NCBI GenBank assembly: GCA_903851235.1
Contig: CAINNR010000032.1
Coordinates: forward strand, 25 to 64,024
Length of the DNA: 64,000 bases
Direction: 5' to 3'
Source: an uncultured Candidatus Berkelbacteria bacterium
GTDB lineage: Bacteria; Patescibacteriota; UBA1384; XYA2-FULL-43-10; CAINNR01
The notes under the pieces are model-generated. The model saw nothing but the letters and a program-made list of their open reading frames with translations. It was not told the origin of the DNA and did no database searches. Made by a program: the position numbers and the translations under genes. This document shows, piece by piece, positions 36,329 through 57,925 of the stretch. Each line of letters opens with the position of its first letter. Positions within the stretch are counted from its first letter, which is position 1.

Positions 36329-37237
36329 TTAAATTTTTTCAATCACCCGCATTTTGGCACTACGGGAACGGGGATTCTCTCTAACATCATCATCAGTCGC
36401 TATGAGAGGTTTTTTTGTGAGTACTTTAAACTCCTCCGGATGCGCGTTTTCCAAATTACGAAAAGTGTGTTTGACAATTCTGTCTTCAAGTGAGTGGAAG
36501 GAGATAATTATCAGTCGGCCATTTTTGTTCAACGATTCAACTGCTGCTGGGATAAACTGTTCCAAAACTTGAAGCTCATTATTAACCTCAATCCGCAAAG
36601 CTTGAAAAACTCGCGTCGCAAAGTGAATGCGCGAGCCGAAGCGGTATTTCGGCGGTGTCGCAGCTTTAATAATTTCAACCAGTTTGGCCGTTGTTTTAAT
36701 TGCTGTTTTTTTTCGCTCCTCTATTATCTTTTTGGCGATCTGTCGCGAGTATTTTTCCTCACCGAATTTATAAAAAATATCGGCCAGCTTTTTTTCATCA
36801 TAATAATTTACAATTTCACCGGCAGTTTCTTCGGCATTTTGGTTCATCCGCATATCAAGCGAAGCGTCGGATTGAAAGGAGAATCCTCGCTCGGGATTAT
36901 CAAGTTGATAGCTGGAAACGCCAAGATCAAGCAAAATACCGTCAATTTTGTCAATTTTTTTGCTCGCCAATATTTCCGCTAAATTTGAATAGTTGTCGTG
37001 AACAAAAATTATTTTATCAGCGATTTTTTTCAGATTTTTTTTGGCGGCAATAATCGCTTCCAAATCTTGGTCAATTCCGATTATTTGACATTTGAAATTA
37101 GAAATTTGACATTTTCGAAGCAACGCTTCGCTGTGTCCGCCGCCACCCAAAGTGCCATCGACAAAAATGCCATTATTTTTTAATGGCATATACTCCAAAA
37201 CCTTGTTTAGTAGTACCGGTTGGTGATTAAATTCCAT
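36329..37237 (-). CDS. rsmH: 16S rRNA (cytosine1402-N4)-methyltransferase RsmH (MraW).
   Basis: 'PVLLNKVLEYMPLKNNGIFVDGTLGGGGHSEALL' is the canonical RsmH N-terminus. Confidence 0.9.
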   Translation of the reverse strand: MEFNHQPVLLNKVLEYMPLKNNGIFVDGTLGGGGHSEALLRKCQISNFKCQIIGIDQDLEAIIAAKKNLKKIADKIIFVHDNYSNLAEILASKKIDKIDGILLDLGVSSYQLDNPERGFSFQSDASLDMRMNQNAEETAGEIVNYYDEKKLADIFYKFGEEKYSRQIAKKIIEERKKTAIKTTAKLVEIIKAATPPKYRFGSRIHFATRVFQALRIEVNNELQVLEQFIPAAVESLNKNGRLIIISFHSLEDRIVKHTFRNLENAHPEEFKVLTKKPLIATDDDVRENPRSRSAKMRVIEKI

Positions 37238-37337: not shown

Positions 37338-37413
37338 GGGGTCGTAGTGTAGTGGTTATCACGTCTCCCTGTCACGGAGAAGATCGCCGGTTCGAGTCCG
37401 GTCGACCCCGCCA
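37338..37413 (+). tRNA. tRNA-Asp (anticodon GTC). It marks the left boundary of the cassette array.
   Basis: Acceptor ggggtcg/cgacccc, anticodon stem-loop tctcc-ctGTCac-ggaga, T-arm ccggt-tcgagtc-cggt, discriminator g, CCA. A TTGAAT-17-TAAAGT promoter lies upstream. Confidence 0.85.
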
Positions 37414-37476
37414 TTAAAATTAGTCGCTATCAGAGCGTCTTTTTTTGTATCAGGCAGACCGGATGCAGAACTTTTG
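37411..37476 (+). repeat. Boundary element E0: the tRNA-Asp 3' end, its downstream hairpin, T-tract and the right inverted repeat. This is the template that every later boundary element copies.
   Basis: ccattaaaattagtcgctatcagagcgtctttttttgtatcaggcagaccggatgcagaacttttg. Confidence 0.75.
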
Positions 37477-37525: not shown

Positions 37526-38245
37526 TTGGATATTATTGAGGTTATGATAGATGGAATAAAACAGAAATTACTAGATATAAGCCAACCTTGCCCAGAGCGA
37601 GACCGCGTTTTTGTTCTGAAATATTTGGGTACCAACAAAGAATATCTGAACATACCGGCGCCAGCCAGAGATAAAATTATTTCAAAGGTTATTGTCGAAA
37701 CTTCCGATCTTCCGCCAGAAAAGATTATCGAAATTCTAGATGAATTATTTAGTTCCGGGATTTATGACTACATAAATTTTGCGGGAAAATTTCTTTCAAA
37801 AAATAAAACCATTCGCAATTTTATCTCCCTTGATCAGCTTGAAAGTTGGATTGCGCAAACAAAGGGTTGGGCCGAGTGTGATAGTATATGTCAGTCTATG
37901 TTTGGCGGGGTTGAAGTATTAGACCGTTGGAAAGAATGGGCGAGAGCTATCAAAGAGTTTTCCAGTAGCGACAATATTCAAATTCGCAGAGCAAGTCTAG
38001 TTCTGCAAACTCGACCAGCCAGAGAAGTTACTGACTTAAATTTCAGACGGTTGGCATTTATAACCATTGAAAAATTGATGGATGAAAGGGATATTTTAAT
38101 TACTAAAGCAATATCCTGGCTCTTACGAGACCTTTCTATCAAAAACAAAACTGAAGTTAGAAAATTTTTGAAAACAAATCAATCAGTTCTTCCAGCGATT
38201 GCATACCGAGAAACAATGAAGAAGATTGAAACGGGGAAAAAGTAG
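37526..38245 (+). CDS. Cassette 1: DNA alkylation repair enzyme-like (AlkD/AlkC HEAT-like repeat family). Tentative.
   Basis: 239-aa all-helical ORF. Its length and the C-terminal 'ISWLLRDLS...REAMK'-like pattern fit pfam DNA_alkylation. Confidence 0.45.
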   Translation: MDIIEVMIDGIKQKLLDISQPCPERDRVFVLKYLGTNKEYLNIPAPARDKIISKVIVETSDLPPEKIIEILDELFSSGIYDYINFAGKFLSKNKTIRNFISLDQLESWIAQTKGWAECDSICQSMFGGVEVLDRWKEWARAIKEFSSSDNIQIRRASLVLQTRPAREVTDLNFRRLAFITIEKLMDERDILITKAISWLLRDLSIKNKTEVRKFLKTNQSVLPAIAYRETMKKIETGKK

Positions 38246-38273: not shown

Positions 38274-38370
38274 CAAAAAAGTTCTAACATCGTTCGCTAT
38301 TTCCCGCCAGCAAACCGAATGATGTTAGAACTATTCGGTTTAATCGCTCTAGAAGCGATTTTTTTGTTGT
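38274..38370 (+). repeat. Boundary element E1: perfect 11-bp inverted repeats, a tRNA-3' mimic and a terminator.
   Basis: caaaaaaGTTCTAACATC-gttcgctatttcccgcca-...GATGTTAGAAC, then aatcgctctagaagcgattttttt. Confidence 0.8.
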
Positions 38371-38830: not shown

Positions 38831-38931
38831 CAATAGTTCTAACGTCATTCGCTATCTCCCGCCATTTAAATTAGTCGCTCTTATAGCGTCTATTTTTTGT
38901 TACGGCAGACCGAATGTAGAACTTTTTATTG
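38831..38931 (+). repeat. Boundary element E2.
   Basis: caatagttctaac...cgctatctcccgccattt...agtcgctcttatagcgtctattttttgttacggcagaccgaatgtagaacttttt. Confidence 0.8.
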
Positions 38932-38982
38932 AGTGTTAACTTTCGAATTAGAATTTTTAACGGTGATGTATCTGAAATCCAG

Positions 38983-39011
38983 TTGACAAACATATTAAAA
39001 GTTGATTATAT
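38983..39011 (+). promoter_or_regulatory. Consensus promoter of cassette 3; leaderless mRNA.
   Basis: TTGACA, 17 nt, TTATAT, with the ATG six nt downstream. Confidence 0.55.
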
Positions 39012-39017
39012 AAGCGT

Positions 39018-39710
39018 ATGCAAGAAAAAGTCTCCAAAATAAAAAAATATTACGACAATCCTGATCAATATCTGGCGGAACATAAGGATTTTTTTTCTAT
39101 CCATAATCCCGAAAAAGATGTGGATTTTTTAATAAAAGTATTGGAAATTGAAAAAAGCGATAATATTCTTGACATAACTTGCGGTCAGGGACGACACACG
39201 ACTGAACTAGCAAAAAGAGGTTATACAGTAAGTGGTGTTGATTTTTCTTCTTCTCTTATTGACGAAGCAAAACAAATAGCTATCGATGCTAATATTAAAT
39301 CACAGTATTATATCCAGAATATCGAGTCACTTAAGTTACCATCAAAGTTTGATATGGCATATTGGTTTTTCTCTGATTTTGCCAACATTGACCTTGCATC
39401 GGCAATAAAATCTATTTCTAATCAGCTCAATCCCGGCGCTAGAGTCCTATTCGATTCAGATAGTCTTTTCCGAATTGTAAGTCATTTGCAAAATAATCCG
39501 GACTCTCCATACAAATTTGACCCAAAGTTACTTCAGTTAATAGACAATTCTCTCGGTCTTAGCATCCCTTATCCAACTTTCCTTATGTGGCAAGATTGGT
39601 TGAACAAAAATGAACTTGAGATTATTAATGTTTGGGGAAATTACGATCTCTCATCTTATGATATTAAAAGTCCTCGTCTGATCATTTTAGCTAATAAAAA
39701 AGCTGCTTAA
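39018..39710 (+). CDS. Cassette 3: class I SAM-dependent methyltransferase.
   Basis: Motif I 'ILDITCGQGRHTTELAKRGYTVSGVDFS'. Confidence 0.75.
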   Translation: MQEKVSKIKKYYDNPDQYLAEHKDFFSIHNPEKDVDFLIKVLEIEKSDNILDITCGQGRHTTELAKRGYTVSGVDFSSSLIDEAKQIAIDANIKSQYYIQNIESLKLPSKFDMAYWFFSDFANIDLASAIKSISNQLNPGARVLFDSDSLFRIVSHLQNNPDSPYKFDPKLLQLIDNSLGLSIPYPTFLMWQDWLNKNELEIINVWGNYDLSSYDIKSPRLIILANKKAA

Positions 39711-39744
39711 GTCAGAATCGACCTAAACAGCTTGTAGTTCTCCG

Positions 39745-41175
39745 CTATGCCGAGGTGGCATGGGAATTGATCGTGTCATAGAGATTGTCGACCTTGCACT
39801 TGAAGAGGCCGGGGTCCTCTGTTAGTATCCACATCAGCTCAAGTACAGAGTCATGGATCTCCTCGCACTTGAAATGAGGCGAACGCAGGTCTCTCGTGGT
39901 CTGATAGTTCTCTCCTCGACAGTTGCCGGCACAGATATACCTGATATCGCAAGCCGCGCATTTTGGATTCATACTATCGATGTTCAGACTGCGAAGATCC
40001 GTCAGAATGGGGGATCCCTTCCAGATCTCAGCCAAACTATCGGTTTTCAGATTGCCCAGGCAGAAATCGGGGACCGCAGTATCGGCGCATGGGTACAGTG
40101 TGCCGTCCGGTTTAACGTAAACCGCTCGATTCGTACCGATTCCACAGCCGAAGCTTTTGACGCCTCCTGCGATTCCCATCACTTGGTTTGCGAAGGTCGA
40201 GTACATCATCAACTGCTGAAGTCGCTGATCATCTCGTATTGCTTCGAAAACCTTCCGGTAGAAATCCGCCAAAGGGACAGCAACGAGTTGTTGCTTCGTT
40301 TCGGCGCTGTTGCCTCGGCCTACATTCATCATGTTTAAACAGTTAAGGCCTTGGACTCCAAGAGAATCGACCAACTTGAGTGTTGGTCGGACCTCATCGA
40401 TATTGCCTGCGTGAATAAACATGTTGACGGCAACTGAGATCCCTGCGTCGCACAGTGCCTTGATGTTGTTGACTGTTGTAGTGAATGTTCCCTCTCCACG
40501 GATGTATTCGTGGCTCTCAGCCCGACATCCGTCAAGGGAAATCGACATTTTCAGCCGGGGATATTTCGCCAGTTGTTTGATATCTGCTGGCGCCAACAGA
40601 GTCGCATTGGTGTTCACTTGAGCGAAATAGCCATGGTTGTGAACATATTCAATCAGATCCATGGCATCGGGGCGGGTAAACAGCTCACCGCCGGTTAGGG
40701 CAACGCGCGATATGCCGTTTTCCCAGGGCATACTCGAAAGTTGATCGATAACTGCTTTGATTTCGACAGAAGTCATCTCGCCGGGGATCTTCTCTTTGGC
40801 CATGGCATAACACATTGCGCATTCCATGTTGCAGAGTTGAGTTGTGGCGATAACCAAGACATTTTCGACTTCATTGACTTGGAAATCCGGCTTATTCTCT
40901 TCGACATCAACCTTCTCACCATCTACTACCAGCACTCCAGCGGAGTGCAGCAGATCGATAGTTTCAGCGACGATGTCGCCAGCCTCCTCTGCTGAGAGTC
41001 CCAATTGGGTTCTGATCTTAGTGACAGCCACATCAGAGTTTCCACAAGCCAACGACTCAAGGATGAGGGCAATCTCCGCCGTTGCAGAGAACCAGTAGGG
41101 TGCTGAGGGAAAGATCACGACTGCTGATTCTTCCCTGAAATAGACCGATGGTTTTTCGGTGAATGCCAACTGCAT
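39745..41175 (-). CDS. Cassette 4: radical SAM enzyme with a C-terminal SPASM domain and a ~110-aa N-terminal extension (a possible RiPP recognition element). Likely a peptide-modifying maturase. GC-rich.
   Basis: 'CNMECAMC' (CxxxCxxC) and C-terminal 'CAACDIRYICAGNCRGENY'. RBS GGGAGA lies before ATG at 41175. Confidence 0.8.
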   Translation of the reverse strand: MQLAFTEKPSVYFREESAVVIFPSAPYWFSATAEIALILESLACGNSDVAVTKIRTQLGLSAEEAGDIVAETIDLLHSAGVLVVDGEKVDVEENKPDFQVNEVENVLVIATTQLCNMECAMCYAMAKEKIPGEMTSVEIKAVIDQLSSMPWENGISRVALTGGELFTRPDAMDLIEYVHNHGYFAQVNTNATLLAPADIKQLAKYPRLKMSISLDGCRAESHEYIRGEGTFTTTVNNIKALCDAGISVAVNMFIHAGNIDEVRPTLKLVDSLGVQGLNCLNMMNVGRGNSAETKQQLVAVPLADFYRKVFEAIRDDQRLQQLMMYSTFANQVMGIAGGVKSFGCGIGTNRAVYVKPDGTLYPCADTAVPDFCLGNLKTDSLAEIWKGSPILTDLRSLNIDSMNPKCAACDIRYICAGNCRGENYQTTRDLRSPHFKCEEIHDSVLELMWILTEDPGLFKCKVDNLYDTINSHATSA

Positions 41176-41198
41176 TTCGGTCTCCCTTCAAAAAAGAT

Positions 41199-41226
41199 CA
41201 GTGAGGCGCGCTCGCGCGCCTCACTG
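41199..41226 (-). terminator. Attenuator/terminator hairpin between the precursor peptide gene and the maturase.
   Basis: Perfect 12-bp stem cagtgaggcgcg-cgag-cgcgcctcactg followed by a U-tract on the minus strand. Confidence 0.6.
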
Positions 41227-41239
41227 TTGTTACGTGGAG

Positions 41240-41332
41240 CTACTGGCCCCGGTAGTACATCGTCCCTTGTGACTCCTTAGTCAAGACGACGATACGACGA
41301 TTGCCACGGTTCAAAATCCGAAACTTCCGCAT
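41240..41332 (-). CDS. 30-aa candidate RiPP precursor peptide (MRKFRILNRGNRRIVVLTKESQGTMYYRGQ). It is not in the supplied ORF track.
   Basis: A strong SD (AGGAGGagcgtcATG) and a TTGACA promoter on the minus strand at ~41408. It lies directly upstream of the radical-SAM/SPASM gene and is separated from it by an attenuator hairpin. Confidence 0.55.
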   Translation of the reverse strand: MRKFRILNRGNRRIVVLTKESQGTMYYRGQ

Positions 41333-41478
41333 GACGCTCCTCCTGTCAGATGGTGTAAGCTGTCGAAACAGCTTCACTATTATTATTAACATACTTTTTT
41401 TACTTTTGTCAACAGCATCGAGTAAATCTGATAACTTTATGAGGATATTTTTATTAATTTTTATGCTAAAATTTGATT

Positions 41479-42153
41479 ATGAATTGGAAAATTTATAAAA
41501 CACAACATTATACTTTTCACTACTTCTCAGGAACTTTGGCAGAAAAGGAAATTGAGAAAATAGCGGATGAACAGGAAGCGTTTTATCGTCATATTTTGTC
41601 GTAACTAAATTTGAAAAATGAGCGTACCATAAACTATTTTTTATATCCAGCGAATCAACTAAAGGGTGAAATAATGGGCGATGATGGTAATGGCAATACT
41701 AATCGAGAAAAATTTGAAGTCTACGCTGTCTACAATGAAAATATAAAATGTATTGGTGCGCATGAAGATACTCATCTCCTATCTCTTCCATTGGGATTGG
41801 CAACTAAACTATTTCGAGAAGGCCTGGCAGAGTTTATGAGTAAAGAATGACATGGAAAAACTCATGATTTTTGGGCTAAAAAATTTCTGAGTGAAAAAAA
41901 GATTCCTGGACTAGCGAAAATTTTAGATGATAAAGAGGGGGATAAAATCAGCGACTTAATTTCTTATCCTTGCGCCGGCTCTTTTTACATATTTTTAATA
42001 TCTAAAATTGGTAAAGGTATTTTTTTAAAACTTTATGGAGCCCTAGACCGAAATATAAATGTTGAAATAAACTTAGTAACAATTAAAGATATCACAAGTA
42101 AATCTTTAGACCAGTGGCAAAAAGAATGGGCAGAAAAAGTGTTGTACCAGTAA
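41479..42153 (+). pseudogene. Cassette 5: decayed gene. One continuous frame is interrupted by TAA (41602-41604) and TGA (41848-41850).
   Basis: My translation reads MNWKIYKTQHYTFHYFSGTLAEKEIEKIADEQEAFYRHILS*LNLKNERTINYF...AEFMSKE*HGKTHDFWAKKF...KVLYQ* in a single frame. No boundary element separates it from cassette 4. Confidence 0.5.
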
Positions 42154-42200
42154 AATATCTGCCTCTTGTTCATCAACTAGTCCAACCTTAGGGAGCCATA

Positions 42201-42297
42201 CAAAAAGTTCTAACTTCCCCCGCTGTGTTCCGCCATTGAAAAAGTCTCTCTGGAAGAGATTATTTTTGTATACGGCAGACTGGATATAGAACTTTTG
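42201..42297 (+). repeat. Boundary element E5.
   Basis: caaaaagttctaacttcccccgctgtgttccgccattgaaaaagtctctctggaagagattatttttgtatacggcagactggatatagaacttttg. Confidence 0.8.
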
Positions 42298-42414
42298 TTT
42301 TTAAACGTAAAACTTCGGATTGGATTTGAAACGAAATGTATGGGCTATTGTCCAAGAGGTCGTCATCATGTACAGATGTTTGACAAAACTGTTGATTGCC
42401 AATAGACTTAGACT

Positions 42415-43083: not shown

Positions 43084-43150
43084 CAAAAAGTTCTAAATTT
43101 AATCGGCGCTCTAAATCTCCGCCAATGAAAAAGTTAGTCCAGTGCTAGTT
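43084..43150 (+). repeat. Degenerate boundary element E6 (left half only).
   Basis: aaaaagttctaaatt...cgctctaaatctccgccaatgaaaaagttagtccagtgctagttttttt. Confidence 0.5.
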
Positions 43151-43216
43151 TTTTTGCGTACTAAAATAGTATATTCTAATTATCTTTTAGCAAATTGTCC
43201 CTGTCCAAAGTGGTAT

Positions 43217-43888: not shown

Positions 43889-43911
43889 CTTGTGCACTCA
43901 TCATAAAATAA

Positions 43912-44060
43912 ACTGGTTCTGACATCATCCGCTATACCTCGCCATTTTGCCCGGGTCTAGCGGAGGGCGTTAGAACCGGAGGAATAATCGCTTTCAGAGC
44001 GGTTATTTTTGTTTTTACAAGTACAAAATTATTTCACAAAATAGATGTTAGAACTAAAAA
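43912..44060 (+). repeat. Boundary element E7: an extended form with two right-IR copies.
   Basis: ggttctgacatcatccgctatacctcgccatttt...gcgttagaacc...aatcgctttcagagcggttattttt...atagatgttagaact. Confidence 0.7.
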
Positions 44061-44574: not shown

Positions 44575-44672
44575 CAGAGTTCTATCATTGTTCGCTATTT
44601 CTCGCCATTGAAAATAGTCGCTTCCAGAGCGTCTGTTTTGCATCCGGCAGACCGGACGTAGAGCTTTTTTTA
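44575..44672 (+). repeat. Boundary element E8.
   Basis: cagagttctatcattgttcgctatttctcgccattgaaaatagtcgcttccagagcgtctgttttgcatccggcagaccggacgtagagcttttttt. Confidence 0.8.
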
Positions 44673-44709
44673 AATGTAAAGCTTCGAATTAGAATTTTTC
44701 ACAGCAGTA

Positions 44710-44929: not shown

Positions 44930-45460
44930 ATGAACGCCAGCAAAGTGATTAGAATGCAGTTGACCAAAAGAAGGCTTCCGGCCGTGTGGGAGCGCGGCGG
45001 TTACACTGGCATCAGTATTGACAGTGAGCCAGTGGGTATTGGGATCGTCTGGGCTAACCCGGATGGTATGCCCTATCGCCCATATTTCATTCAGGACACC
45101 GAACCGAACGACCAGCAGGCATTGGTTCCTGTCGAGAACGGGAGCTGGATGGTCGTTGCGAGACAGTGGCATCCTGGTAGATTCAACTATGAGGTCTGCC
45201 AGGTTACCGATGTTCGCACCGATCCAGACTCGTACGGCTTGTCTTTGAGTGAAGTGTTTCAGATGACCGATGGTGAGCCAGACTATCAGTGGCGTCATGA
45301 ATGGCTCAGCTGTTGGTCTCAACAGAAGTCGCACGGCCACCCTCAATCCGTGATCTCAGCCGTACCCATCACACTGAAGGCGGCTATCGACGCCGCCCTG
45401 GCCAAATGCCAGTGCCCGGGTTGCAGGGAAGCACACTATGTGCTGCCTCGCAAGAAGTAG
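44930..45460 (+). CDS. Cassette 9: GC-rich hypothetical protein.
   Basis: 176 aa with a strong SD and no family recognised. Confidence 0.55.
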   Translation: MNASKVIRMQLTKRRLPAVWERGGYTGISIDSEPVGIGIVWANPDGMPYRPYFIQDTEPNDQQALVPVENGSWMVVARQWHPGRFNYEVCQVTDVRTDPDSYGLSLSEVFQMTDGEPDYQWRHEWLSCWSQQKSHGHPQSVISAVPITLKAAIDAALAKCQCPGCREAHYVLPRKK

Positions 45461-45498
45461 CAACAACAAGGAGGACGGACATCAGTTGTTCGTCTTCC

Positions 45499-45549
45499 CC
45501 CTCAACACATTAAGTGTTCTGATGAGTCGTTGAAATTACGACGAAAGGG
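45499..45549 (+). ncRNA. Hammerhead ribozyme (type III, open helix III), copy 1.
   Basis: CCCU-C|AACAC-auuaa-GUGUU-CUGAUGA-G-UCG-uugaaauua-CGA-C-GAAA-GGG. All core nucleotides are present. Helix I is a 5-bp hairpin, helix II is 4 bp closed by the conserved G10.1-C11.1 pair, and helix III is CCCU/AGGG. The predicted cleavage is after C at 45503. Confidence 0.75.
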
Positions 45550-45554
45550 ATAAA

Positions 45555-45653
45555 CAAAATAGTTCTAACTCCCTTCGCTATGCTCCGCCATTAAAAATAG
45601 TCGCTCTAGAAGCGATTATTTTTCTATGTGATAGACAGGATGTAAAACTTTTG
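45555..45653 (+). repeat. Boundary element E9.
   Basis: caaaatagttctaactcccttcgctatgctccgccattaaaaatagtcgctctagaagcgattatttttctatgtgatagacaggatgtaaaacttttg. Confidence 0.8.
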
Positions 45654-46160: not shown

Positions 46161-46232
46161 CAAAATGTTCCAACTTCCTCTGCTGTCTACTGCCAATAAA
46201 TTAGTCTCTGATAGAGAGTCTTTTTTTGTGTA
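46161..46232 (+). repeat. Degenerate boundary element E10.
   Basis: aaatgttccaacttcctctgctgtctactgccaataaattagtctctgatagagagtctttttttgtgtact. Confidence 0.5.
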
Positions 46233-46283
46233 CTATTGGTTCCACTTGGTCTATAAATCGACTTTGTATGGTAGAATGAAGCC

Positions 46284-46745: not shown

Positions 46746-46837
46746 AGCTGCAACTTATATCAGGACTACGGAATTGTTTTGAAATCAAATTAATCAGAAC
46801 GTTCAAAGAAGGTCTTGGCTCCATATTGTTGATAATC

Positions 46838-46905
46838 CAGTTCTAACATTGTTTGCTGTTCCCCGTCAACGAAAACAGTCGCTACCAGAGCGACTGTTTT
46901 TAATT
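46838..46905 (+). repeat. Boundary element E11 (left IR, mimic, perfect 7-bp terminator hairpin).
   Basis: ccagttctaacattgtttgctgttccccgtcaacgaaaacAGTCGCTaccagAGCGACTgtttttaatt. Confidence 0.7.
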
Positions 46906-46956
46906 TAAGCCGGGAAATTTTTACTAAAAAACGCAAAAGATCTTGCCACTTTACTT

Positions 46957-47452: not shown

Positions 47453-47540
47453 ACAAAAAGTTCTAACATCCTCCACTATCTGACACCGAATGCCCGAGTC
47501 TAGTGGAGTATATAAATGCTACGAGCGGATATCTTTGTTT
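47453..47540 (+). repeat. Boundary element E12 (partly degenerate).
   Basis: caaaaagttctaacatcctccactatctgacaccgaatgcccgagtctagtggag...cggatatctttgttttt. Confidence 0.6.
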
Positions 47541-47679: not shown

Positions 47680-47913
47680 ATGACACTCGGACTCATACTG
47701 CTGGTCGCTGGAGTTATTGCATTTTTGGTAGGATTTGCCATTGCAGCGAACAACATGGCTTCAGTCGCCAAGAACCCTGACGACATGCTTGACAGCCAGA
47801 ACAACCCGTTCGTGAAGCATCTTGGCGCCATGGTAGTCATGGCCTTCGGTGGTGGTAGCGCGCTCATCGGCCTTGTCCTAATCGTCATTGCGCTGGTCGG
47901 CAAACACGCGTAG
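47680..47913 (+). CDS. Cassette 14: small GC-rich two-TM membrane protein.
   Basis: 77 aa, MTLGLILLVAGVIAFLVGFAIAA... Confidence 0.55.
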   Translation: MTLGLILLVAGVIAFLVGFAIAANNMASVAKNPDDMLDSQNNPFVKHLGAMVVMAFGGGSALIGLVLIVIALVGKHA

Positions 47914-47966
47914 TAAGCACAACAACAGAGGGGATTCACTAAGAGGGTACGAAGTTGTACTCTCCC

Positions 47967-48017
47967 CCCTCAACATTAAATTGTTCTGATGAGTCGTTGA
48001 AAATTACGACGAAAGGG
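47967..48017 (+). ncRNA. Hammerhead ribozyme (type III), copy 2.
   Basis: CCCU-C|AACA-uuaaau-UGUU-CUGAUGA-G-UCG-uugaaaauua-CGA-C-GAAA-GGG. Helix I is 4 bp; in copy 1 a compensatory change makes it 5 bp. Confidence 0.75.
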
Positions 48018-48021
48018 ATAA

Positions 48022-48112
48022 ACAAATAGTTCTATCATCCTCCATTACCTCTTACCATGAAAAAGTAGCCTTGGAAGCTATTTTTTTGTATATGGCAGAC
48101 CGAATGTAGAAC
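48022..48112 (+). repeat. Boundary element E14.
   Basis: caaatagttctatcatcctccattacctcttaccatgaaaaagtagccttggaagctatttttttgtatatggcagaccgaatgtagaacg. Confidence 0.8.
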
Positions 48113-48136
48113 GTCTGTCCTTCTAGGCTCACAACT

Positions 48137-48165
48137 ATTGACACACTTGGCACTTTTTGTTATAG
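48137..48165 (+). promoter_or_regulatory. Perfect-consensus promoter of cassette 15, duplicated at 62890-62918.
   Basis: aactaTTGACA-cacttggcactttttgt-TATAGT-gatttgcgaagac. The 46-bp segment 48133-48178 is almost identical to 62886-62931. Confidence 0.7.
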
Positions 48166-48196
48166 TGATTTGCGAAGACAGAATCCTGAAAGGATG

Positions 48197-48712
48197 TGTT
48201 TGTTTATGTCCTGCGGATGTCCGAGACCGTTGCTACTAGATGTTGATCTGCCGTTTCTGATCGAGACCGTCTTACCCCACGTGCTGGCCGAGGTTGCCAG
48301 AGTCAGCGACATGCGAGATCGAGAGGGTGGCATGTTCGTGTTGATGCGAGCCGTCACCGGCGAGATCATCGTCGGCCCGAAGCAGGTCGGCCAGATTAAC
48401 AACGGTAAGGAAGATAAGTACGCCGAGTTCGCTCAGGAGAAACCGGTTCGGCTCCTCGAACACCCAGATCACTGTCTGAGCTGGGAGAGTCGAGATCCGG
48501 ACAACAACAAGTGGGGTGGCGCCGTCAATGATGGCCTCTTCGTCTGGTCCTTCTCCGGACTCTCGGAGGAACAGGACGAAGCGCTCGTGCTGATGGCATC
48601 CCATCTCTGCGGCCGCATTCGCAACGGCGACCCCAAGGCAATGGCAGAGATTTCCAATAACAGAATCATCATCGACAATCCCTACCTCTTCTGGTGTCCT
48701 CGGGAGAGTTAG
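48197..48712 (+). CDS. Cassette 15: GC-rich hypothetical protein.
   Basis: About 170 aa (MCLFMSCGCPRPLLLDV...). The start is ambiguous between ATGs at 48197 and 48209; the track uses TTG at 48170. Confidence 0.5.
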   Translation, partial: CLFMSCGCPRPLLLDVDLPFLIETVLPHVLAEVARVSDMRDREGGMFVLMRAVTGEIIVGPKQVGQINNGKEDKYAEFAQEKPVRLLEHPDHCLSWESRDPDNNKWGGAVNDGLFVWSFSGLSEEQDEALVLMASHLCGRIRNGDPKAMAEISNNRIIIDNPYLFWCPRES

Positions 48713-48762
48713 AGTGTCGGCGACACGGGGACTTACCCAAATGGGCACGACCTGTGCCCATT

Positions 48763-48813
48763 CCCTCAACATTAAATTGTTCTGATGAGTCGTTGAAAAT
48801 TACGACGAAAGGG
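48763..48813 (+). ncRNA. Hammerhead ribozyme (type III), copy 3.
   Basis: CCCU-C|AACA-uuaaau-UGUU-CUGAUGA-G-UCG-uugaaaauua-CGA-C-GAAA-GGG. It is preceded by the terminator-like hairpin gggcac-gacct-gtgccc. Confidence 0.75.
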
Positions 48814-48818
48814 ATGAG

Positions 48819-48918
48819 CAAATTGTTCTAGCTTACTACGCTATCTTCCGCCAATAAAAATAGTCGTTCTACGAGAGGTTATTTTTTTGTATATTGCGGA
48901 CCGGATGCAGAACTTTTG
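48819..48918 (+). repeat. Boundary element E15.
   Basis: caaattgttctagcttactacgctatcttccgccaataaaaatagtcgttctacgagaggttatttttttgtatattgcggaccggatgcagaacttttg. Confidence 0.8.
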
Positions 48919-49354: not shown

Positions 49355-49400
49355 AAAAAAATTCTAACTTCCTAGTTGATCTCCGACAATGAAAAATCGC
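49355..49400 (+). repeat. Degenerate boundary element E16 (left half).
   Basis: aaaaaaattctaacttcctagttgatctccgacaatgaaaaat. Confidence 0.45.
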
Positions 49401-49823
49401 GTGCCTGTTGAAATACCAGTTTTTTCATTCTTGTGGCATTTATGGAAATCTGGTTATGAAGGACAAACCTTTATTGTTTTATCCAAAAAACTTCTGAAAT
49501 ATAAAAAAATATATTCAATCTTTGTAAAAATTAATCCTAACCCTTCAAAGGCTGGCGGACATCATTTGCTTAATTTAGCCCTTTGTTAATTAAAGCTTTT
49601 TCAAGGCCAGTGATTTTATAATGGAAAAGTATCAATTTGACAACTATTTCAACCGGTTGTAACATATGAAGTATAATAAGGAAAAATAAACAATACACGA
49701 CTCTCTTTCTTAATTTCTATATTACTAAATACGCCAGAGTTAAGCTGTTGTTTGACCAGTTATTTGCTCCAAAAATACAGTGATTGAGAAAGAAAATATT
49801 ATGATAACAAGGGGAGGTTAAAA

Positions 49824-50552: not shown

Positions 50553-50650
50553 AAATCATCTCTAACATCGTTTTCTGCCCCCAGACATTAAAAATAGTCG
50601 CTCTGAAAGCGTCTATTTTTAATACTCCAGACCGGATGCAAAACTATAGA
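50553..50650 (+). repeat. Boundary element E18.
   Basis: catctctaacatcgttttctgcccccagacattaaaaatagtcgctctgaaagcgtctatttttaatactccagaccggatgcaaaactatag. Confidence 0.75.
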
Positions 50651-50813: not shown

Positions 50814-52088
50814 ATGAATCGATCGATCTCAGTAATTGGCTTGGGATATGTTGGCTTACCGCTTGCAATCTTGGCGGATCAGAAAAACTATCATGTAATA
50901 GGCATTGATACTGATCCTAAAAAGATTGCATTGCTAAACAAAAAACTATCACCTTTCCATGATAAAAAAATATCCAAGGATTTAAAAACTAGCGGTATCA
51001 TTGCCAGCCAAGATTATAATAATATCCAAAAATCTTCGATTATAATAATATGTGTTCCCACTCCGGTGAATGATGATCATACTCCAAACCTTAGCCCGGT
51101 TATAAATGCCTGCAAATCACTAGCTCCTTTTTTGCAAAAAGGCCAATTAATCATCCTTGAATCAACTGTTAATCCCGGCGTATCAGAAGATATCGTTCTG
51201 CCAATCTTAGAAAAAATATCAGGATTAAAGTGCGGGCCGGATTTTTCACTGGCTCACTGTCCAGAGAGAATCAACCCAGGTGATAAGAAATGGACTGTTG
51301 AGAATATTCCTAGAGTTATCGGCGCAACGGATGAAACCGGGTTGAAAAGAGCAGCTGAATTCTATCGCTCAATCATCAAAGGTGAAATAAAAGAAATGAA
51401 AACTATCAAAGAAGCAGAGGCTGTAAAAGTGGTTGAAAATTCATTTCGTGATATAAATATTGCTTTCGTCAATGAGCTCGCGATGTCTTTTGACAACCTG
51501 GGTATTGATGTCGTTAATGTCATCAACGGTGCCGCTACCAAACCCTTCGCCTTTATGGCCCACTACCCCGGTTGTGGAGTCGGTGGACATTGTATTCCGG
51601 TTGATCCATACTATCTTATTGAGTACGCTAGAAAGCATGGCTTTCAAAACGACTTTTTGTTGATGGCTCGTAATGTAAATAACAAAATGCCAAAATATAC
51701 TGCTGACAAAGTTTCTGATGAATTAAACCAAAAGAAGATAGCAATCAATGGCACCAAAGTCGCCGTATTGGGTTTGTCGTATAAATCAAATGTTGGTGAT
51801 GATCGGGAAAGTCCGTCATACAAAATCATACAAAATCTCGAAAAACTTGGCGCTGAAGTTGCCAGTTTCGACTCATATATTCCAGACAAATCCAGCGCTA
51901 GCACTCTGGAAGACGCTATCAACGGGGCCAAAGCGGTTGTAATTGCGACCTGCCATAAGGAATTTAGGAAGTTGACGCCAGAATATCTACGATCGTCTGG
52001 AATTGAAGTTGTAGTTGATGGGCGGAATTGCTTAAGTAAGGAGATTTTTTCCAGCTCTGGAATTATATATAAAGGTATTGGGCAGTAA
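50814..52088 (+). CDS. Nucleotide-sugar dehydrogenase (UDP-glucose/GDP-mannose dehydrogenase family).
   Basis: 'ISVIGLGYVGLPLAILADQ' Rossmann N-terminus and the catalytic-Cys region 'GGHCIPVDPYYL'. Confidence 0.85.
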   Translation: MNRSISVIGLGYVGLPLAILADQKNYHVIGIDTDPKKIALLNKKLSPFHDKKISKDLKTSGIIASQDYNNIQKSSIIIICVPTPVNDDHTPNLSPVINACKSLAPFLQKGQLIILESTVNPGVSEDIVLPILEKISGLKCGPDFSLAHCPERINPGDKKWTVENIPRVIGATDETGLKRAAEFYRSIIKGEIKEMKTIKEAEAVKVVENSFRDINIAFVNELAMSFDNLGIDVVNVINGAATKPFAFMAHYPGCGVGGHCIPVDPYYLIEYARKHGFQNDFLLMARNVNNKMPKYTADKVSDELNQKKIAINGTKVAVLGLSYKSNVGDDRESPSYKIIQNLEKLGAEVASFDSYIPDKSSASTLEDAINGAKAVVIATCHKEFRKLTPEYLRSSGIEVVVDGRNCLSKEIFSSSGIIYKGIGQ

Positions 52089-52091
52089 ATA

Positions 52092-53486
52092 ATGAATCTT
52101 TTATTCTCCAAAATTTCTCAGATATTAGACAAATTAATACGAAAAGAGGAAAAGCTCCGGCTTATTCCGCATTTTATTGTTATCTGTATTTTTACATTTC
52201 TAATTGCTAAAGTAGTTTTCAGGTCACCTACTTCCAATACAATATTATTTACTTATGGGATCACGGTCACATCAATATTATTTATGACTTTTACCGTCGC
52301 ATTTATCTTCTACAGGGATCCTTATGAAAAAGCTATGAAGGAAGCTAAAAAACTTTCCAAAATGGCGGACCCATTGGTTAGTTGCATGGTTGCAGTATTT
52401 AATGAAGAAAAAATTATTGAACAATGTGTTTTGTCAATTGTAAATCAAACATATCAGAATAAGGAAGTCATCTTCGTAAATGATAAAAGTACTGATAAAA
52501 CCGGCAAAATTCTCGATCGACTTGAAAAAAAATACAACTTCCGAACAATCCATCTGAAACAGAATCTTGGCAAGAAAGGTGCGCTTGCTCGCGCATGTCA
52601 TGAAGCAAAAGGCGATATACTGGCTTTTTCCGATAGTGATTCAATATGGGCCCCTGATGCGATAGAAAAAATTGTACCAATTTTTAAACACGACTCAAAA
52701 GTGGGGGCAGTTAGCGGTCATACACTGGCATTAAATGCCACTAAAAATCTACTCACAAGAGTCCAAGATTCCTGGTACGAAGGTCAATACTCCATCAGGA
52801 AAGCGTTTGAAAGTGTTTTCGGATGTGTAACTTGTGTTTCAGGTCCCCTAGCCGTTTTTCGTAGAGAAAGTATTTATAATTATATACCGGCATGGGAACA
52901 TGATAAGTTTTTGGGTCAACCATTTCGCTTTGCTACCGATCGAACTCTGACCGGCTTTGTCCTGGGTAGTAAATATATTAGTAAACGCATAAAGAAGAAA
53001 TACGCTACATCACCATTTATGAGCATTGATTATCCAGCGCAGGATTGGAAGATAGTATATTGCAAAGCTGCGCATGCCTGGACAGAAGTACCTGATACTT
53101 TTCGTGGGGTGATAAAACAACAAACGCGTTGGAAGAAGAGTTTTATCCGAAACATTTTTTTCACAGGCCGTTTCTATTGGCATAAACCACTTTTGCCTAC
53201 TCTGGTATATTACTTGCATATTGTCTTTGTTGTACTGGGCCCATTCGTTGTTTTTCGTCATCTAATTTACTTACCACTAAATGGAAATCTGTATTCAATG
53301 TTTCTCTACTTGGCTGGTATCTGTTTTATCGGTTTAATGTTCGGATTGGCAATAAAGCTTGAAGATCCAAAATCTCACCGTTGGATTTATCGACCGCTTA
53401 TGAGTCTGTTTTCAACACTGGTTTTGTCATGGCTTATTTTTTATTCAGCCTTAACTATCCGCAAGATGTTTTGGTCAAGGAATTAG
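52092..53486 (+). CDS. Processive family-2 glycosyltransferase (cellulose/chitin/hyaluronan-synthase-like), membrane-embedded.
   Basis: 'VAVFNEEKIIEQCVLSIVNQTY', 'VNDKSTD', 'FSDSDS', 'QQTRWKKSF' (QxxRW motif). Flanking TM helices. Confidence 0.8.
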   Translation: MNLLFSKISQILDKLIRKEEKLRLIPHFIVICIFTFLIAKVVFRSPTSNTILFTYGITVTSILFMTFTVAFIFYRDPYEKAMKEAKKLSKMADPLVSCMVAVFNEEKIIEQCVLSIVNQTYQNKEVIFVNDKSTDKTGKILDRLEKKYNFRTIHLKQNLGKKGALARACHEAKGDILAFSDSDSIWAPDAIEKIVPIFKHDSKVGAVSGHTLALNATKNLLTRVQDSWYEGQYSIRKAFESVFGCVTCVSGPLAVFRRESIYNYIPAWEHDKFLGQPFRFATDRTLTGFVLGSKYISKRIKKKYATSPFMSIDYPAQDWKIVYCKAAHAWTEVPDTFRGVIKQQTRWKKSFIRNIFFTGRFYWHKPLLPTLVYYLHIVFVVLGPFVVFRHLIYLPLNGNLYSMFLYLAGICFIGLMFGLAIKLEDPKSHRWIYRPLMSLFSTLVLSWLIFYSALTIRKMFWSRN

Positions 53487-53487
53487 T

Positions 53488-57731: not shown

Positions 57732-57857
57732 AGAGCCAGATATCGATCTCAACAACGGCAAAAATTGGGCACTTAATTTAAAAGTTACAGATGTTGGCAA
57801 TGGTTTTGCTGGGCTCCAGTAATTAAACTATTAATTCTTCTGACCGGAAGATCAGAA

Positions 57858-57925
57858 AAGGTCTAAACTTCAATCGCTATGCTCCTCCATAATATAAAAT
57901 AGCCGTTTGGGCTTTTTTGTTTAGT
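57858..57925 (+). repeat. Boundary element E22 (degenerate right half).
   Basis: ggtctaaacttcaatcgctatgctcctccataatataaaatagccgtttgggcttttttgtttag. Confidence 0.6.

Follow-up and report, generated by a model that had tools for sequence, protein, structure and literature searches.

The tycheposon-seeded genomic islands of Prochlorococcus grow directionally from the 3' end of a specific tRNA gene (Hackl et al., bioRxiv 10.1101/2020.12.28.424599). The multi-kb elements in these islands are flanked by partial tRNA copies and carry their own tyrosine or large serine recombinase and usually a replication module. In Dehalococcoides, tandem islands lie downstream of a single tRNA-like gene, ssrA, and each island is bounded by a 20-bp direct repeat of the 3' end of this gene (McMurdie et al. 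2011, PMC3146451). These islands are roughly phage-sized and most carry a CcrB-like serine integrase module, but some lack the integration module and are read as cis-mobilizable elements. Such elements (CIMEs) have been reviewed together with ICEs and IMEs as DNA segments that are bounded by att sites, encode no recombination or transfer functions, and depend on an integrase supplied by another element (PMC5704250). Integrons, and CALINs, which are clusters of attC sites lacking an integrase (Cury et al. 2016, PMC4889954), are arrays of mostly single-gene cassettes in one orientation. Finally, the DUF1874 motif is a structured element in consecutive intergenic regions that has been proposed as an unusual attC without an integrase (Weinberg et al. 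2017, PMC5737381).

Here we describe a locus in an uncultured Candidatus Berkelbacteria bacterium (CPR) that shares features with several of these systems. The window, that is, the whole stretch of DNA analyzed, comprises 64,000 nt of contig CAINNR010000032.1 (assembly GCA_903851235.1). About 27 kb of small, mostly single-gene units sit behind a tRNA-Asp gene in this window. The units are separated by ~90-nt elements that copy the 3' end of the tRNA, its terminator hairpin, and an inverted piece of its T-arm. This arrangement looks like an integron-style gene-capture array built on tRNA attachment-site chemistry, with no recombinase gene nearby.

Results

First, we examined the claim of a sequence-only reading that every cassette boundary carries a copy of the tRNA-Asp 3' end plus its downstream hairpin. 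The underlying observation is real. The last 7 nt of the tRNA (CCCGCCA), the hairpin following it, and the 19-nt block GGCAGACCGGATGCAGAAC recur on the + strand from 38.3 kb to the contig end. Seventeen copies lie in the window and two more just beyond it, whereas none lies in the 37 kb upstream. The sequence CCGCCATTWAAAWTAGTCGCT (up to 3 mismatches) occurs 6 times on the + strand, compared to 0.01 times in shuffled sequences, and GGCAGACCGRATGYAGAAC occurs 8 times, compared to 0.03. A covariance model built from 13 copies placed every significant match on the + strand between 37.4 and 63.5 kb. These matches include copies that were not used to build the model, at 46834–46931 (E = 1e-8), 38275–38338 (E = 5e-5), 43910–43983, and 46161–46250. 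The same model found nothing better than E = 0.3 in 1–37 kb. The three examples given in the sequence-only reading (45573–45653, 44590–44672, and 38844–38931) fall inside elements e45561, e44578, and e38835 (Table 1). The window contains only one tRNA-Asp, so that an intact second copy, which had been named beforehand as evidence for ordinary duplication, does not apply.

The phrase "every boundary" is nevertheless too strong. About 12 junctions have core, hairpin, and right arm. Four junctions (43089, 46165, 46839, and 49360) have left arm, core, and hairpin but no right arm, and three (38280, 43915, and 47459) are short forms with an inner right arm placed before the hairpin. The multigene stretches 38.9–42.2 kb and 50.8–61.4 kb have no internal elements. 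On the other hand, the homology is wider than had been claimed. It continues leftward into a 29-nt left arm (GTTCTAAC...CCCGCCA) that MAFFT aligns with the T-loop-to-CCA segment of the tRNA, the right arm is complementary to the T-arm of the tRNA and represents an inverted, shortened copy of it, and the array continues past the window end.

Table 1. Coordinates of the tRNA-Asp anchor, boundary elements, hammerhead motifs, and cassette array in the window (all features are listed on the + strand)
Position	Strand	Feature	Description	Support
37338–37413	+	tRNA-Asp(GTC)	Anchor of the array, CCA encoded; T-loop-to-CCA segment GTTCGAGTCCGGTCGACCCCGCCA (37390–37413, 24 nt) takes the place of the left arm in internal elements	ARAGORN; Rfam tRNA, 68.9 bits; alignment with element left arms
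37407–37413	+	Core CCCGCCA	Last 7 nt of the tRNA; shared exactly by the best-preserved elements here and in L039, L041, and L033; proposed crossover region	
37414–37476	+	Element-type right half joined to the tRNA	Read as an attL-like junction; A-rich stretch, terminator hairpin (AGTCGCTATCAGAGCGTC plus a T run, 37422–37446), right arm GGCAGACCGGATGCAGAAC (37453–37471), then TTTTG; right arm complementary to the tRNA T-arm (GTTC/GAAC and TCCGGTC/GACCGGA)	DNA fold z = -2.3 and -3.1
38280–38367	+	e38280, short form	Left arm + core, then inner right arm GCAAACCGAATGATGTTAGAAC pairing with the left arm over a 17-bp stem, then terminator (38342–38367); follows the AlkD-like cassette (37544–38245)	DNA fold z = -7.1 (38277–38335); covariance model E = 5e-5
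38835–38923	+	e38835, long form	29-nt left arm, core, hairpin, right arm	DNA fold z = -5.6 on the bottom strand; covariance model 105.7 bits
42206–42293	+	e42206, long form		
43089–43152	+	e43089	Left arm + core + hairpin, no right arm	
43915–44055	+	e43915, short form	Left arm, core, and inner right arm ending GTTAGAACC (43915–43977), terminator (43980–44016), second GATGTTAGAACT box (44044–44055)	Homologous to L039 2203–2307, with one compensatory left/right arm change
44578–44665	+	e44578, long form		
45496–45552	+	Type III hammerhead ribozyme motif	3' UTR of cassette 44930–45460; ends 8 nt before the left arm	40.6 bits, E = 1e-6; full CUGAUGAG...CGAAA core
45561–45649	+	e45561, long form		
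46165–46226	+	Degenerate element	Left arm-like stretch, CTGCCAA core, and hairpin, no right arm	Covariance model E = 4e-3
46839–46906	+	e46839	Left arm + CCCGTCA + hairpin, no right arm	Covariance model E = 1e-8 (not in the training set)
47459–47531	+	Short-form-like element, degenerate	Left arm CTCCACTA pairing with TAGTGGAG	
47964–48020	+	Type III hammerhead motif	3' UTR of cassette 47680–47913	
48028–48113	+	e48028, long form	Decayed core (CTTACCA)	
48760–48816	+	Type III hammerhead motif	3' UTR of cassette 48170–48712	
48824–48914	+	e48824, long form	Left arm GTTCTAGC and right arm GCAGAAC differ from the usual TAAC/GTAGAAC on both sides	
49360–49425	+	Degenerate element	No right arm	Covariance model E = 0.08
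50560–50645	+	e50560, long form	Decayed core (CCAGACA)	
62110–62195	+	e62110, long form		
62783–62871	+	e62783	Left half decayed; right half (hairpin 3' side + right arm) 91% identical to the tRNA junction	
63462–63543	+	e63462, decayed long form	Two more right arms lie just past the window end on overlapping contigs	
37477–64000	+	Cassette array	About 20 small transcription units, mostly on the + strand: AlkD-like protein, methyltransferases, radical SAM/SPASM (- strand), DUF5674, TPR, flavodoxin-like protein, DUF1801 (- strand), YGGT, and many ORFans; an 11-kb polysaccharide/Big_5/peptidase-C39 block (50814–61400) has no internal elements	

We then turned to the content of the array. The cassettes are of mixed composition, with GC contents ranging from 34 to 57% against a backbone of 41%. 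By a consensus scan only, strong sigma-70-like sites (10–11 of 12 matches) sit at cassette 5' ends, and each element contains a terminator-like hairpin, a plausible intrinsic terminator. Three cassettes also carry a type III hammerhead motif (RF00008) in the 3' UTR. The catalytic core (CUGAUGA...GAAA) and stems are present in all three, but stem III has only about 3 bp and the scores of 40.6, 36.1, and 32.4 bits are below the Rfam gathering score of 48.5.

The region upstream of the array contains rsmH and the tRNA instead of an integrase gene. Pfam scans of 60 ORFs and phmmer searches with IntI1 and XerD against all 318 six-frame ORFs identified no IntI and no tyrosine or serine recombinase of any kind in the 64 kb. 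Neither a transposase nor a RAYT is encoded in the window. No integrase was found in related loci L033, L036, and L039 or in L045 (see below), and no tyrosine or serine recombinase appears in the fully visible arrays of three of them, the 20-kb loci L033, L036, and L045.

The arms of the elements form inverted repeats (AAAAGTTCTA...TAGAACTTTT), making the elements long imperfect palindromes. On 13 copies, the full palindrome is 73.9% paired, compared to 33–44% when the partners are slid, and eleven pairs change on both sides. Column pair 20–87, a same-junction compensatory change, is CG in 4, UG in 4, and UA in 3 copies. In a permutation test, arms of the same junction (cis) paired better than random partners (p = 0.06), whereas the two arms flanking the same cassette, the partners expected in a circle, did not (p = 0.36). 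Both tests were weak. Most long forms pair no better with their own left arm than with others, and several right arms pair best with the tRNA. The short forms e38280 and e43915 fold well and carry TCTAAC...GTTAGA, whereas the long forms have GTA, GCA, or ATA in place of GTT. The tRNA site itself also folds into such a hairpin.

Relatives carry the same family of elements. L033 is a minimal version. It reads tRNA-Asp, hairpin and right arm, one cassette, then AGTTCTAG...CCCGCCA and a terminator without a right arm (8595–8665), followed by genes shared with L036. Content immediately downstream of the tRNA site differs between L033 and L036 while both flanks are conserved, and the homology between the two loci stops exactly at the end of the right arm (...CGAGAAC). 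Both loci also carry exact 18–19-nt direct repeats of the tRNA-Asp 3' end. In L039, the last element (2742–2830) lacks a right arm and sits near the array end. Left arm and core are 97–100% identical between organisms whose RsmH is only 68% identical, while these near-identical blocks are joined to unrelated right halves and unrelated genes. For example, 30 of 30 nt match between 38280 in the window and 565 in L039.

An unrelated CPR contig (L045) has the same architecture behind tRNA-Asn. Its boundary elements read GTTC(G/T)AAATG...(G/A)GGGAGCCA, and each is again exactly 29 nt from GTTC to CCA and ends in the tRNA-Asn 3' end (GGGGAGCCA copies). A terminator follows each one, and an inverted GTTCGAA box lies downstream of the tRNA. 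In total, the left arm is 29 nt in all 14 well-preserved copies, drawn from four loci and two families, whereas the tRNA segment is 24 nt. The AlkD-like cassette, which is first after the tRNA in the window, is internal in L041 and sits in the tRNA-Asn array of L045. In the AlkD comparison only the right boundary, just after the core, is sharp, and the elements downstream of the two AlkD homologues cannot be aligned beyond the core. The left boundary cannot be placed because all elements are 72–85% alike; the tRNA junction is as similar to e38835 (85%) as to the L041 element (83%).

Contigs of the same population from at least 8 samples show the same cassette order; samples that hold this population include ERZ18626762, ERZ27313102, ERZ27313081, ERR4193245, and ERR4193360. 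The single exception is a 28-nt alternative end on contig L042, whose breakpoint (window 38980/38981) is not in an element. Cluster look-ups showed that the cassette proteins exist only in this population, and a homologue search with 12 cassette proteins concatenated into one query returned nothing. L043, a close rsmH relative, ends before the tRNA, and L040, which contains an AlkD homologue, has no element of this family. Scans of genome and metagenome contigs with the right-arm pattern gave only single chance hits without element context. Four scans of viral contigs (right arm, tRNA-Asp 3' end, left arm, and hammerhead) found nothing relevant. Blastn against phages matched only tRNA-Asp genes and not the flank, and blastn against plasmids found nothing.

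Discussion

How may such an array arise? Because the core follows the anchoring tRNA, we favor, with modest confidence, serial site-specific integration with crossover in the tRNA 3'-end core by a recombinase acting in trans. In this view, the mobile unit is a small transcription unit with a promoter-like site, usually one gene, and a terminator. In circular form, it would carry one ~90-nt attP-like element consisting of the 29-nt left arm, the 7-nt core, an A-rich stretch plus terminator hairpin, and the right arm. The recombinase, encoded outside this contig, could be a tyrosine or a large serine recombinase, and could be host-encoded or carried on a helper element. The tRNA would stay intact and be followed by the right half of the element (attL-like, 37407–37476), while older cassettes would be pushed distally and be separated by full hybrid elements. 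The far end should be an attR, that is, left arm, core, and the native tRNA terminator without a right arm. L033 matches this attL...attR picture. The anatomy and number of the copies, their restriction to one strand and to the array, the absence of a recombinase gene, the core that tracks the tRNA in a second family, and the different content in relatives rest on direct observation. In contrast, the circular intermediates and their mobilization by a helper, the exact crossover, the enzyme class, and any present activity of the array are inferences.

The sequence-only reading had argued for a tRNA-targeting recombinase acting cassette by cassette, rather than classical IntI/attI chemistry, and our data support this interpretation in part. 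In agreement with it, the units are small and mostly single-gene, the stretch that the best-preserved copies share exactly with the tRNA is its 3'-terminal CCCGCCA, and no IntI is encoded in the window. The switch to the tRNA-Asn 3' end in L045 is predicted by a crossover in the tRNA core but not by integron R'-box chemistry. The constant 29-nt left arm, the direct repeats in L033 and L036, the near-identical left arm and core blocks joined to unrelated right halves and genes, the different positions of the AlkD-like cassette, the different content downstream of the tRNA site in L033 and L036, and the range of cassette GC contents also support serial integration. Repeated tRNA or tmRNA 3' ends produced by serial integration also have precedents in the Dehalococcoides ssrA islands (PMC3146451) and the tycheposons (10.1101/2020.12.28.424599). 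However, no recombinase, circular junction, or empty site was seen, and the contigs of the population are colinear. The sequence directly to the right of the core varies among elements, and no conserved pair of inverted binding sites flanks the core at the 6–8 bp spacing usual for tyrosine recombinases. Serial integration into an attL-type junction is not a standard reaction for serine integrases. The model explains neither why the right arm is an inverted T-arm copy nor why this arm is better conserved than left arm and core in distal, decayed elements. The end point of the homology between L033 and L036 would also fit a crossover at the right-arm box.

Several more specific readings were considered and dropped. 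A T-loop crossover in this family is disfavored because the internal left arms could not restore the acceptor stem. A dif/Xer-like duplex core would require an 11-6-11 arrangement, which is not present. A tRNA-like structure in cassette mRNAs lacks a 5' partner for a T stem, and a retroviral-type primer-binding site is disfavored because the right arm lacks the acceptor/CCA complement. A fixed-distance operator upstream of promoters does not fit the distance from right arm to -35 box, which varies from 25 to 87 nt. The 5-bp half-site offset between attP and attB of large serine integrases could be related to the difference between 29 and 24 nt, but the offset here sits in the inner part of the arm, so that this idea remains only a lead.

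The strongest rival, which we consider less likely but alive, is an integron-like array (a CALIN or a new integron relative). In this case, the ~55–90-nt elements would act as attC-type single-stranded hairpins, the tRNA 3' half plus right arm would be the attI-like first site, crossover would occur in the outer right box (G|T(T)AGAAC), and an IntI- or Xer-like recombinase would be encoded elsewhere. The inverted-repeat arms, the strong folding of the short forms and of the tRNA site, and the single-gene cassettes in shared orientation are consistent with this view. The TCTAAC...GTTAGA boxes of the short forms match the integron R''/R' consensus RYYYAAC/GTTRRRY. The same-junction compensatory changes, such as that between 43915 and L039 2203, the cis pairing, and the end point of the L033/L036 homology point in the same direction. 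On the other hand, no intI lies in the 64 kb, the long forms lack the invariant GTT, and their cis pairing is weak. A conserved loop motif equal to the tRNA 3' end has no role in attC chemistry. Terminal or solitary elements without a right arm (L033 8595–8665, L039 2742, and window 43089 and 46839) cannot fold as attC. Integron cassettes are promoterless and expressed from Pc, whereas the cassettes here carry their own promoter-like sites and terminators.

A second alternative, which we consider doubtful, is that there is no dedicated recombination system today. The elements would be relics of old integrations or reused terminator/promoter modules, and cassettes would be gained and lost by homologous recombination between the repeats or by transformation with flanking homology. 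The identical array in all same-population contigs, the decay of many distal elements, the L042 variant that breaks outside an element, and the terminator in every element agree with this view, as do homology blocks that often run past the element ends into promoters or 3' UTR modules. However, the near-identity of left arm and core between distant organisms with unrelated flanks, the rigid 29-nt spacing across two tRNA families, and the confinement of the copies to one strand and to the array argue against it. The right arm is conserved where nothing else is, which points to selection on the sites themselves and not just on a terminator. MITE- or REPIN-type repeats spread by a transposase or a RAYT are very unlikely: although the elements have 10-nt terminal inverted repeats, are about 90 nt long, lie between genes, contain a terminator-like hairpin, and include a GTAG within the right box, all copies share one orientation and lie only downstream of the tRNA, none lies in 37 kb of housekeeping DNA, no target-site duplications were seen, no transposase or RAYT is encoded in the window, and the core copies the neighboring tRNA in two independent families.

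A more far-reaching possibility, which we put forward only tentatively, is that CPR bacteria have a dedicated gene-capture platform that does the job of an integron by different means. A tRNA 3' end would serve as the fixed insertion site, and cassettes would carry a ~90-nt site that mimics this tRNA, with a 29-nt arm ending in the last 7–9 nt of the tRNA and an inverted T-arm box. The recombinase would act in trans, each cassette would bring its own promoter and terminator and sometimes a hammerhead ribozyme, and the design would have been adapted to at least two tRNAs (Asp and Asn). CPR/Patescibacteria have tiny genomes, and our literature searches found no description of integron-like cassette arrays in them. 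A tRNA-anchored array of gene-sized cassettes would be a concrete route for gene gain in these organisms. It would also link two fields that are usually kept apart, tRNA-att integrative elements and integron-type cassette arrays. This link bears on the origin of cassette recombination sites, because here each site is visibly modeled on the tRNA and its flank. The fixed architecture (GTTCKAA, 29 nt to the CCA, the core of the neighboring tRNA, a hairpin, and an inverted box) provides a simple search pattern that makes the question testable across genomes. The hammerhead motifs in cassette 3' UTRs give a defined genetic context for bacterial hammerheads, whose role is largely unknown.

Comparison with known systems

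Like the DUF1874 motif, the elements described here are conserved, structured, and recurrent in consecutive intergenic regions with no integrase at the 5' end of the run, but sequence and structure are different and no link to a tRNA was reported for that motif. Like CIMEs, the segments are bounded by att-like sites and carry no recombination or transfer genes. CIMEs, however, are described as decayed ICEs or IMEs, usually one or two per site, and not as a long series of gene-sized units with a dedicated composite site.

With integrons and CALINs, the array shares mostly single-gene cassettes in one orientation, many of them ORFans, separated by imperfect inverted-repeat sites with conserved outer boxes and a variable middle. 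The best-preserved elements lie nearest the anchor, which may mean that the newest cassettes are there, and an integrase can be absent from CALINs as well. In contrast to integrons, the array is anchored on a tRNA gene and not on intI/attI, the site carries a core identical to the tRNA 3' end, long forms lack the GTT triplet, the cassettes have their own promoter-like sites and terminators, and terminal sites lack one arm.

The Dehalococcoides ssrA islands resemble the array in their tandem arrangement downstream of a tRNA-like gene, in the direct repeats of its 3' end, and in the extra conserved bases that surround each repeat. Their repeat is a faithful 20-bp copy, whereas here only 7 nt are identical and sit inside a diverged 29-nt arm. 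The tycheposon islands share directional growth from the 3' end of an intact tRNA gene, partial tRNA copies at the element boundaries, a tRNA-specific attachment site, plug-in cargo, and a host with a streamlined genome. The units described here, however, are 0.5–1.5 kb and mostly single-gene, no recombinase or replication gene occurs in more than 27 kb, and the junctions, in their full form, are ~90-nt palindromic elements with an inverted T-arm copy.

Genomic context and recurrence of the junction elements

ARAGORN and Rfam identified a tRNA-Asp(GTC) with its CCA encoded. The gene upstream on the minus strand is rsmH (Pfam Methyltransf_5, E=1e-115), followed by division-cluster-like ORFs, dnaJ and dnaK, so that the left flank of the tRNA is housekeeping DNA. 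RsmH homologs place the organism in Candidatus Berkelbacteria, a CPR lineage, and with a contig of 64,299 nt the window is essentially the whole contig. Its left end has about 50% GC, unlike the housekeeping region that follows (38–43% GC), and carries ORFs without Pfam hits next to a GNAT acetyltransferase. The coordinates of all features are collected in the table below.

Coordinates of the features in the window and in the related contigs
Feature	Contig	Position	Strand
Left end of the contig	window	1-4000	
ORFs without Pfam hits	window	93-671, 760-1236, 2225-3223 on the minus strand	
rsmH	window	36329-37237	-
tRNA-Asp(GTC)	window	37338-37413	
Short-form junctions, inner right arm before the hairpin	window	38280, 43915, 47459	
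Junctions without a right arm	window	43089, 46165, 46839, 49360	
Elements with homology past the right arm	window	38835-38961, 42206-42327, 44578-44702	
Alternative end on L042	L042 against window	1-28 against 38953-38980	
Stretch matched by L042 at 99.9%	window	38981-42367	
Multigene unit with SAM methyltransferase and radical SAM/SPASM enzyme	window	39018-41850	
Type III hammerhead motif	window	45496-45552	+
Type III hammerhead motif	window	47964-48020	+
Type III hammerhead motif	window	48760-48816	+
Right arm and promoter region, similar pair	window	48081-48179 against 62839-62931	
Block without internal elements	window	50814-61400	
Methyltransferase-like gene, 173 aa	window and L039	61577-62098 and 3302-3823	
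Pseudo-tRNA-Asp pieces and intact tRNA-Asp	L033	7620-7930	
Repeated junction module around GC-rich ORFs	L036	8040-8720	
Cassette array behind tRNA-Asn	L045	7271-14340	
More faithful T-loop-to-CCA copy	L045	8250-8272	
Intergenic CCCGCCA and CCGCCA motifs	L040	1140-1160 and 4840-4860	

The string straddling the tRNA 3' end does recur. CCGCCATTWAAAWTAGTCGCT matches 6 times, whereas shuffled sequences predict 0.01 matches, and GGCAGACCGRATGYAGAAC matches 8 times against 0.03 expected. All of these matches are on the + strand downstream of the tRNA. Inspection and alignment of the junctions gave a consensus element of about 90 nt that consists, in order, of the left arm AAAAAGTTCTAAC-nTCnTTCGCTATnT, the core CCCGCCA, TTAAAA, a hairpin (TAGTCGCT-loop-AGCGA plus a T run), GTAT, the right arm GGCAGACCGGATGYAGAAC, and TTTTG. 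A covariance model built from 13 copies found all significant matches on the + strand between 37.4 and 63.5 kb, six of which had not been used to build it. The same model found nothing better than E=0.3 in the first 37 kb. Overlapping contigs show two more right arms just past the window end. The observation made in the sequence-only reading is therefore confirmed, although the claim that every cassette boundary carries such a copy is too strong. Four junctions lack the right arm, three are short forms in which an inner right arm precedes the hairpin, and two multigene stretches have no internal elements.

The homology is wider than first described. MAFFT aligns the left arm of the element with the segment of the tRNA that runs from the T-loop to the CCA (GTTCGAGTCCGGTCGACCCCGCCA). 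In all 14 well-preserved copies, which come from the window and from the related contigs L039, L041 and L045 described below, the distance from GTTC to the CCA is exactly 29 nt, whereas in the tRNA it is 24 nt. The right arm is an inverted, shortened copy of the tRNA's own T-arm: GAAC pairs with GTTC, GACCGGA with TCCGGTC, and GGC with GCC. The tRNA junction folds accordingly (z = -2.3 and -3.1). Several distal right arms pair better with the tRNA than with their own left arm, and the copy just beyond the window, GGCAGACCGGACTCAGAAC, gives -18.6 kcal/mol. Each element is thus one long imperfect palindrome centered on a terminator-like hairpin. On 13 copies, 73.9% of cells are paired, compared to 33–44% in slid controls, and the hairpin stem shows compensatory changes. 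In three elements the homology continues about 35 nt past the right arm, and this extension contains a second, weaker motif that resembles the right box (for example AAATGTAAAGCTTCGAATTAGAATTTTT).

Contents of the array

Between the elements lie about 20 small units, mostly on the + strand. Recognizable products are an AlkD-like protein, two methyltransferases, a radical SAM/SPASM enzyme, DUF5674, a TPR protein, a flavodoxin-like protein, DUF1801 and YGGT, while many others have no Pfam hit. The GC content of the cassettes ranges from 34 to 57%, against 41% for the backbone. Strong sigma-70-like sites sit at many cassette 5' ends (44 sites against 28 ± 5 in shuffled sequences), and the elements contain terminator-like hairpins, although both assignments rest on consensus matches only. 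In front of two unrelated genes, the right arm and the next ~60 nt of promoter region are 78% identical, so that right arm and promoter behave as one module.

Two multigene stretches depart from the single-gene pattern. One multigene unit holds a SAM methyltransferase (+), a convergent radical SAM/SPASM enzyme (-, 51% GC) and small ORFs, and could be a peptide-modification cassette. The other is an 11-kb block with backbone-like GC and no internal elements. It encodes UDP-glucose dehydrogenase, a GT2 glycosyltransferase, a heparinase II/III-like + polysaccharide deacetylase protein, and Big_5 and peptidase C39-like proteins. This block is either one very large cassette or native DNA between two array segments.

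A relaxed Rfam search also revealed three type III hammerhead ribozyme motifs (RF00008). They score 40.6, 36.1 and 32.4 bits, below the gathering score of 48.5, but all three have the full catalytic core (CUGAUGAG...CGAAA) and a short stem III. Each sits in the 3' UTR of a GC-rich ORFan cassette and ends 7–8 nt before the left arm, and the three share a roughly 95-nt 3' module.

We then asked whether the region encodes an enzyme that could move these units. Pfam scans of 60 ORFs, comprising those of at least 150 aa in 1–24.3 kb and the main ORFs from 25.7 kb to the window end, found no tyrosine or serine recombinase and no transposase. The only recombination genes among them are ruvABC. A phmmer search with approximate IntI1 and XerD sequences against all 318 six-frame ORFs gave nothing below E=1, which counts as a screen only.

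Related arrays in other genomes

The contig L039, from an organism with 68% identical RsmH, has three elements of the same family. One has a left arm and core identical over 30 nt to the junction at window position 38280, although the genes on both sides are unrelated. The last element of L039 lacks a right arm and lies near the end of the array, and no integrase follows. The two organisms also share a methyltransferase-like gene that is 82% identical in nucleotide sequence, more than RsmH is. The similarity starts at the ATG and stops at the stop codon, and the gene is internal to the array in the window but last before native genes in L039. A further contig, L041, carries a 77%-identical AlkD-like gene as an internal cassette between two elements. 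By contrast, L040, a contig with another AlkD homolog, has no element of this family. Intergenic CCCGCCA and CCGCCA motifs follow the AlkD homolog and another gene in this contig, which could be chance or a third family.

In L033 and L036 (RsmH 64–66% identical), tRNA-Asp is followed by a hairpin and a right-arm-like box, (T/C)GACCGG(A/G)CGAGAAC, which is again complementary to the T-arm. Both loci also carry exact 18–19-nt direct repeats of the tRNA 3' end. They are colinear on both sides but differ immediately after that box. L033 then holds one inverted cassette, after which comes AGTTCTAGTATTATCCGCTGTTTCCCGCCA plus a terminator, with no right arm, and then genes shared with L036. This is what an attL...cassette...attR arrangement looks like if the native tRNA flank was a plain terminator. 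Upstream of the intact tRNA-Asp of L033, a stretch of about 190 nt holds broken pseudo-tRNA-Asp pieces, and a 16-bp inverted repeat (GAAAAAAATCAACTGG / CCAGTTGATTTTTTTC) flanks the intact gene. It looks as if a new tRNA copy was inserted into an older one. In L036, a different repeated junction module, the terminator CCACCAGCnGCACCGGTGG followed by the promoter-like TTGTAnAAAAGAnGAAAAAATGGTATATATTTAT, surrounds GC-rich ORFs downstream of the tRNA-Asp site.

An independent family was found in L045, another CPR contig, which was reached through a 58%-identical AlkD homolog. Here, a tRNA-Asn is followed by + strand units: HD, two small ORFs, a methyltransferase, AlkD, a lactate permease and a 524-aa protein. 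After several of them sits an element ending GTTC(G/T)AAATG-N10-(G/A)GGGAGCCA. This element is again 29 nt from GTTC to CCA, ends in the last 8–9 nt of tRNA-Asn (GGGGAGCCA), and is followed by a terminator. An inverted GTTCGAA box lies about 45 nt downstream of the tRNA, and the locus also contains a second, more faithful T-loop-to-CCA copy. No integrase was called in 20.7 kb. The outer box and the spacing are conserved, while the core switches with the anchoring tRNA.

Possible mechanisms

The core that tracks the tRNA, the terminal elements that lack one arm, the exact tRNA-end repeats in relatives and the missing intI all fit serial integration with crossover in the core at the tRNA 3' end. 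In this view, the recombinase would be encoded elsewhere. There are published precedents for repeated tRNA or tmRNA ends from serial integration (PMC3146451; tycheposons). We consider this model somewhat more likely than not. The sequences show the anatomy of the elements, their confinement to one strand downstream of the tRNA, the lack of a recombinase gene among the ORFs scanned and the switch of the core in L045, whereas the integration events, the point of crossover, the enzyme acting in trans and the mobility of the cassettes are inferred. The suggestion of the sequence-only reading that a tRNA-targeting recombinase acted cassette by cassette, rather than classical IntI/attI chemistry, is therefore supported in part.

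Three points count against a clean verdict. First, the arms are inverted repeats; short forms look like textbook attC sites (TCTAAC...GTTAGA), and there is modest covariation within the same junction. Second, homology between L033 and L036 ends exactly at the right box. Third, no conserved duplex binding sites flank the core at the usual spacing. An integron-like hairpin mechanism thus remains possible, but we hold it to be unlikely. A comparison of the AlkD cassettes shows a sharp loss of similarity just after the downstream core, but the upstream boundary cannot be placed because all right halves are 72–85% alike.

Less likely still is the reading of the array as a static relic or as a product of homologous recombination. 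Contigs of the same population are colinear, so that we saw no direct sign of current mobility. The one exception is L042, a contig from sample ERZ27313081, whose first 28 nt (AAGCCACCTTTTAATTGAGGCGGCTTTT, terminator-like) are absent from the window. The methyltransferase unit therefore has an alternative upstream neighbor, but the breakpoint lies just 5' of AGTTGACA (the -35 box) and not in an element. An origin as MITE/REPIN repeats is very improbable.

Comparison with known systems

Searches of the literature for integrons in Patescibacteria/CPR, for attC with tRNA, and for hammerheads with integrons found no description of this arrangement. The principle of accretion at a tRNA is already known, and in logic the array works like tycheposon or ssrA-island accretion, whereas in form it looks like an integron or CALIN. 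It does not fit the integron family as defined, because no intI/attI was found in the window, its cassettes carry their own promoter-like sites, and its long forms lack the GTT triplet, although its short forms look like attC sites. It also lacks the self-encoded integrase of tRNA-targeting islands. The array fits the CIME description, but as a long, regular series of gene-sized units with a dedicated composite site.
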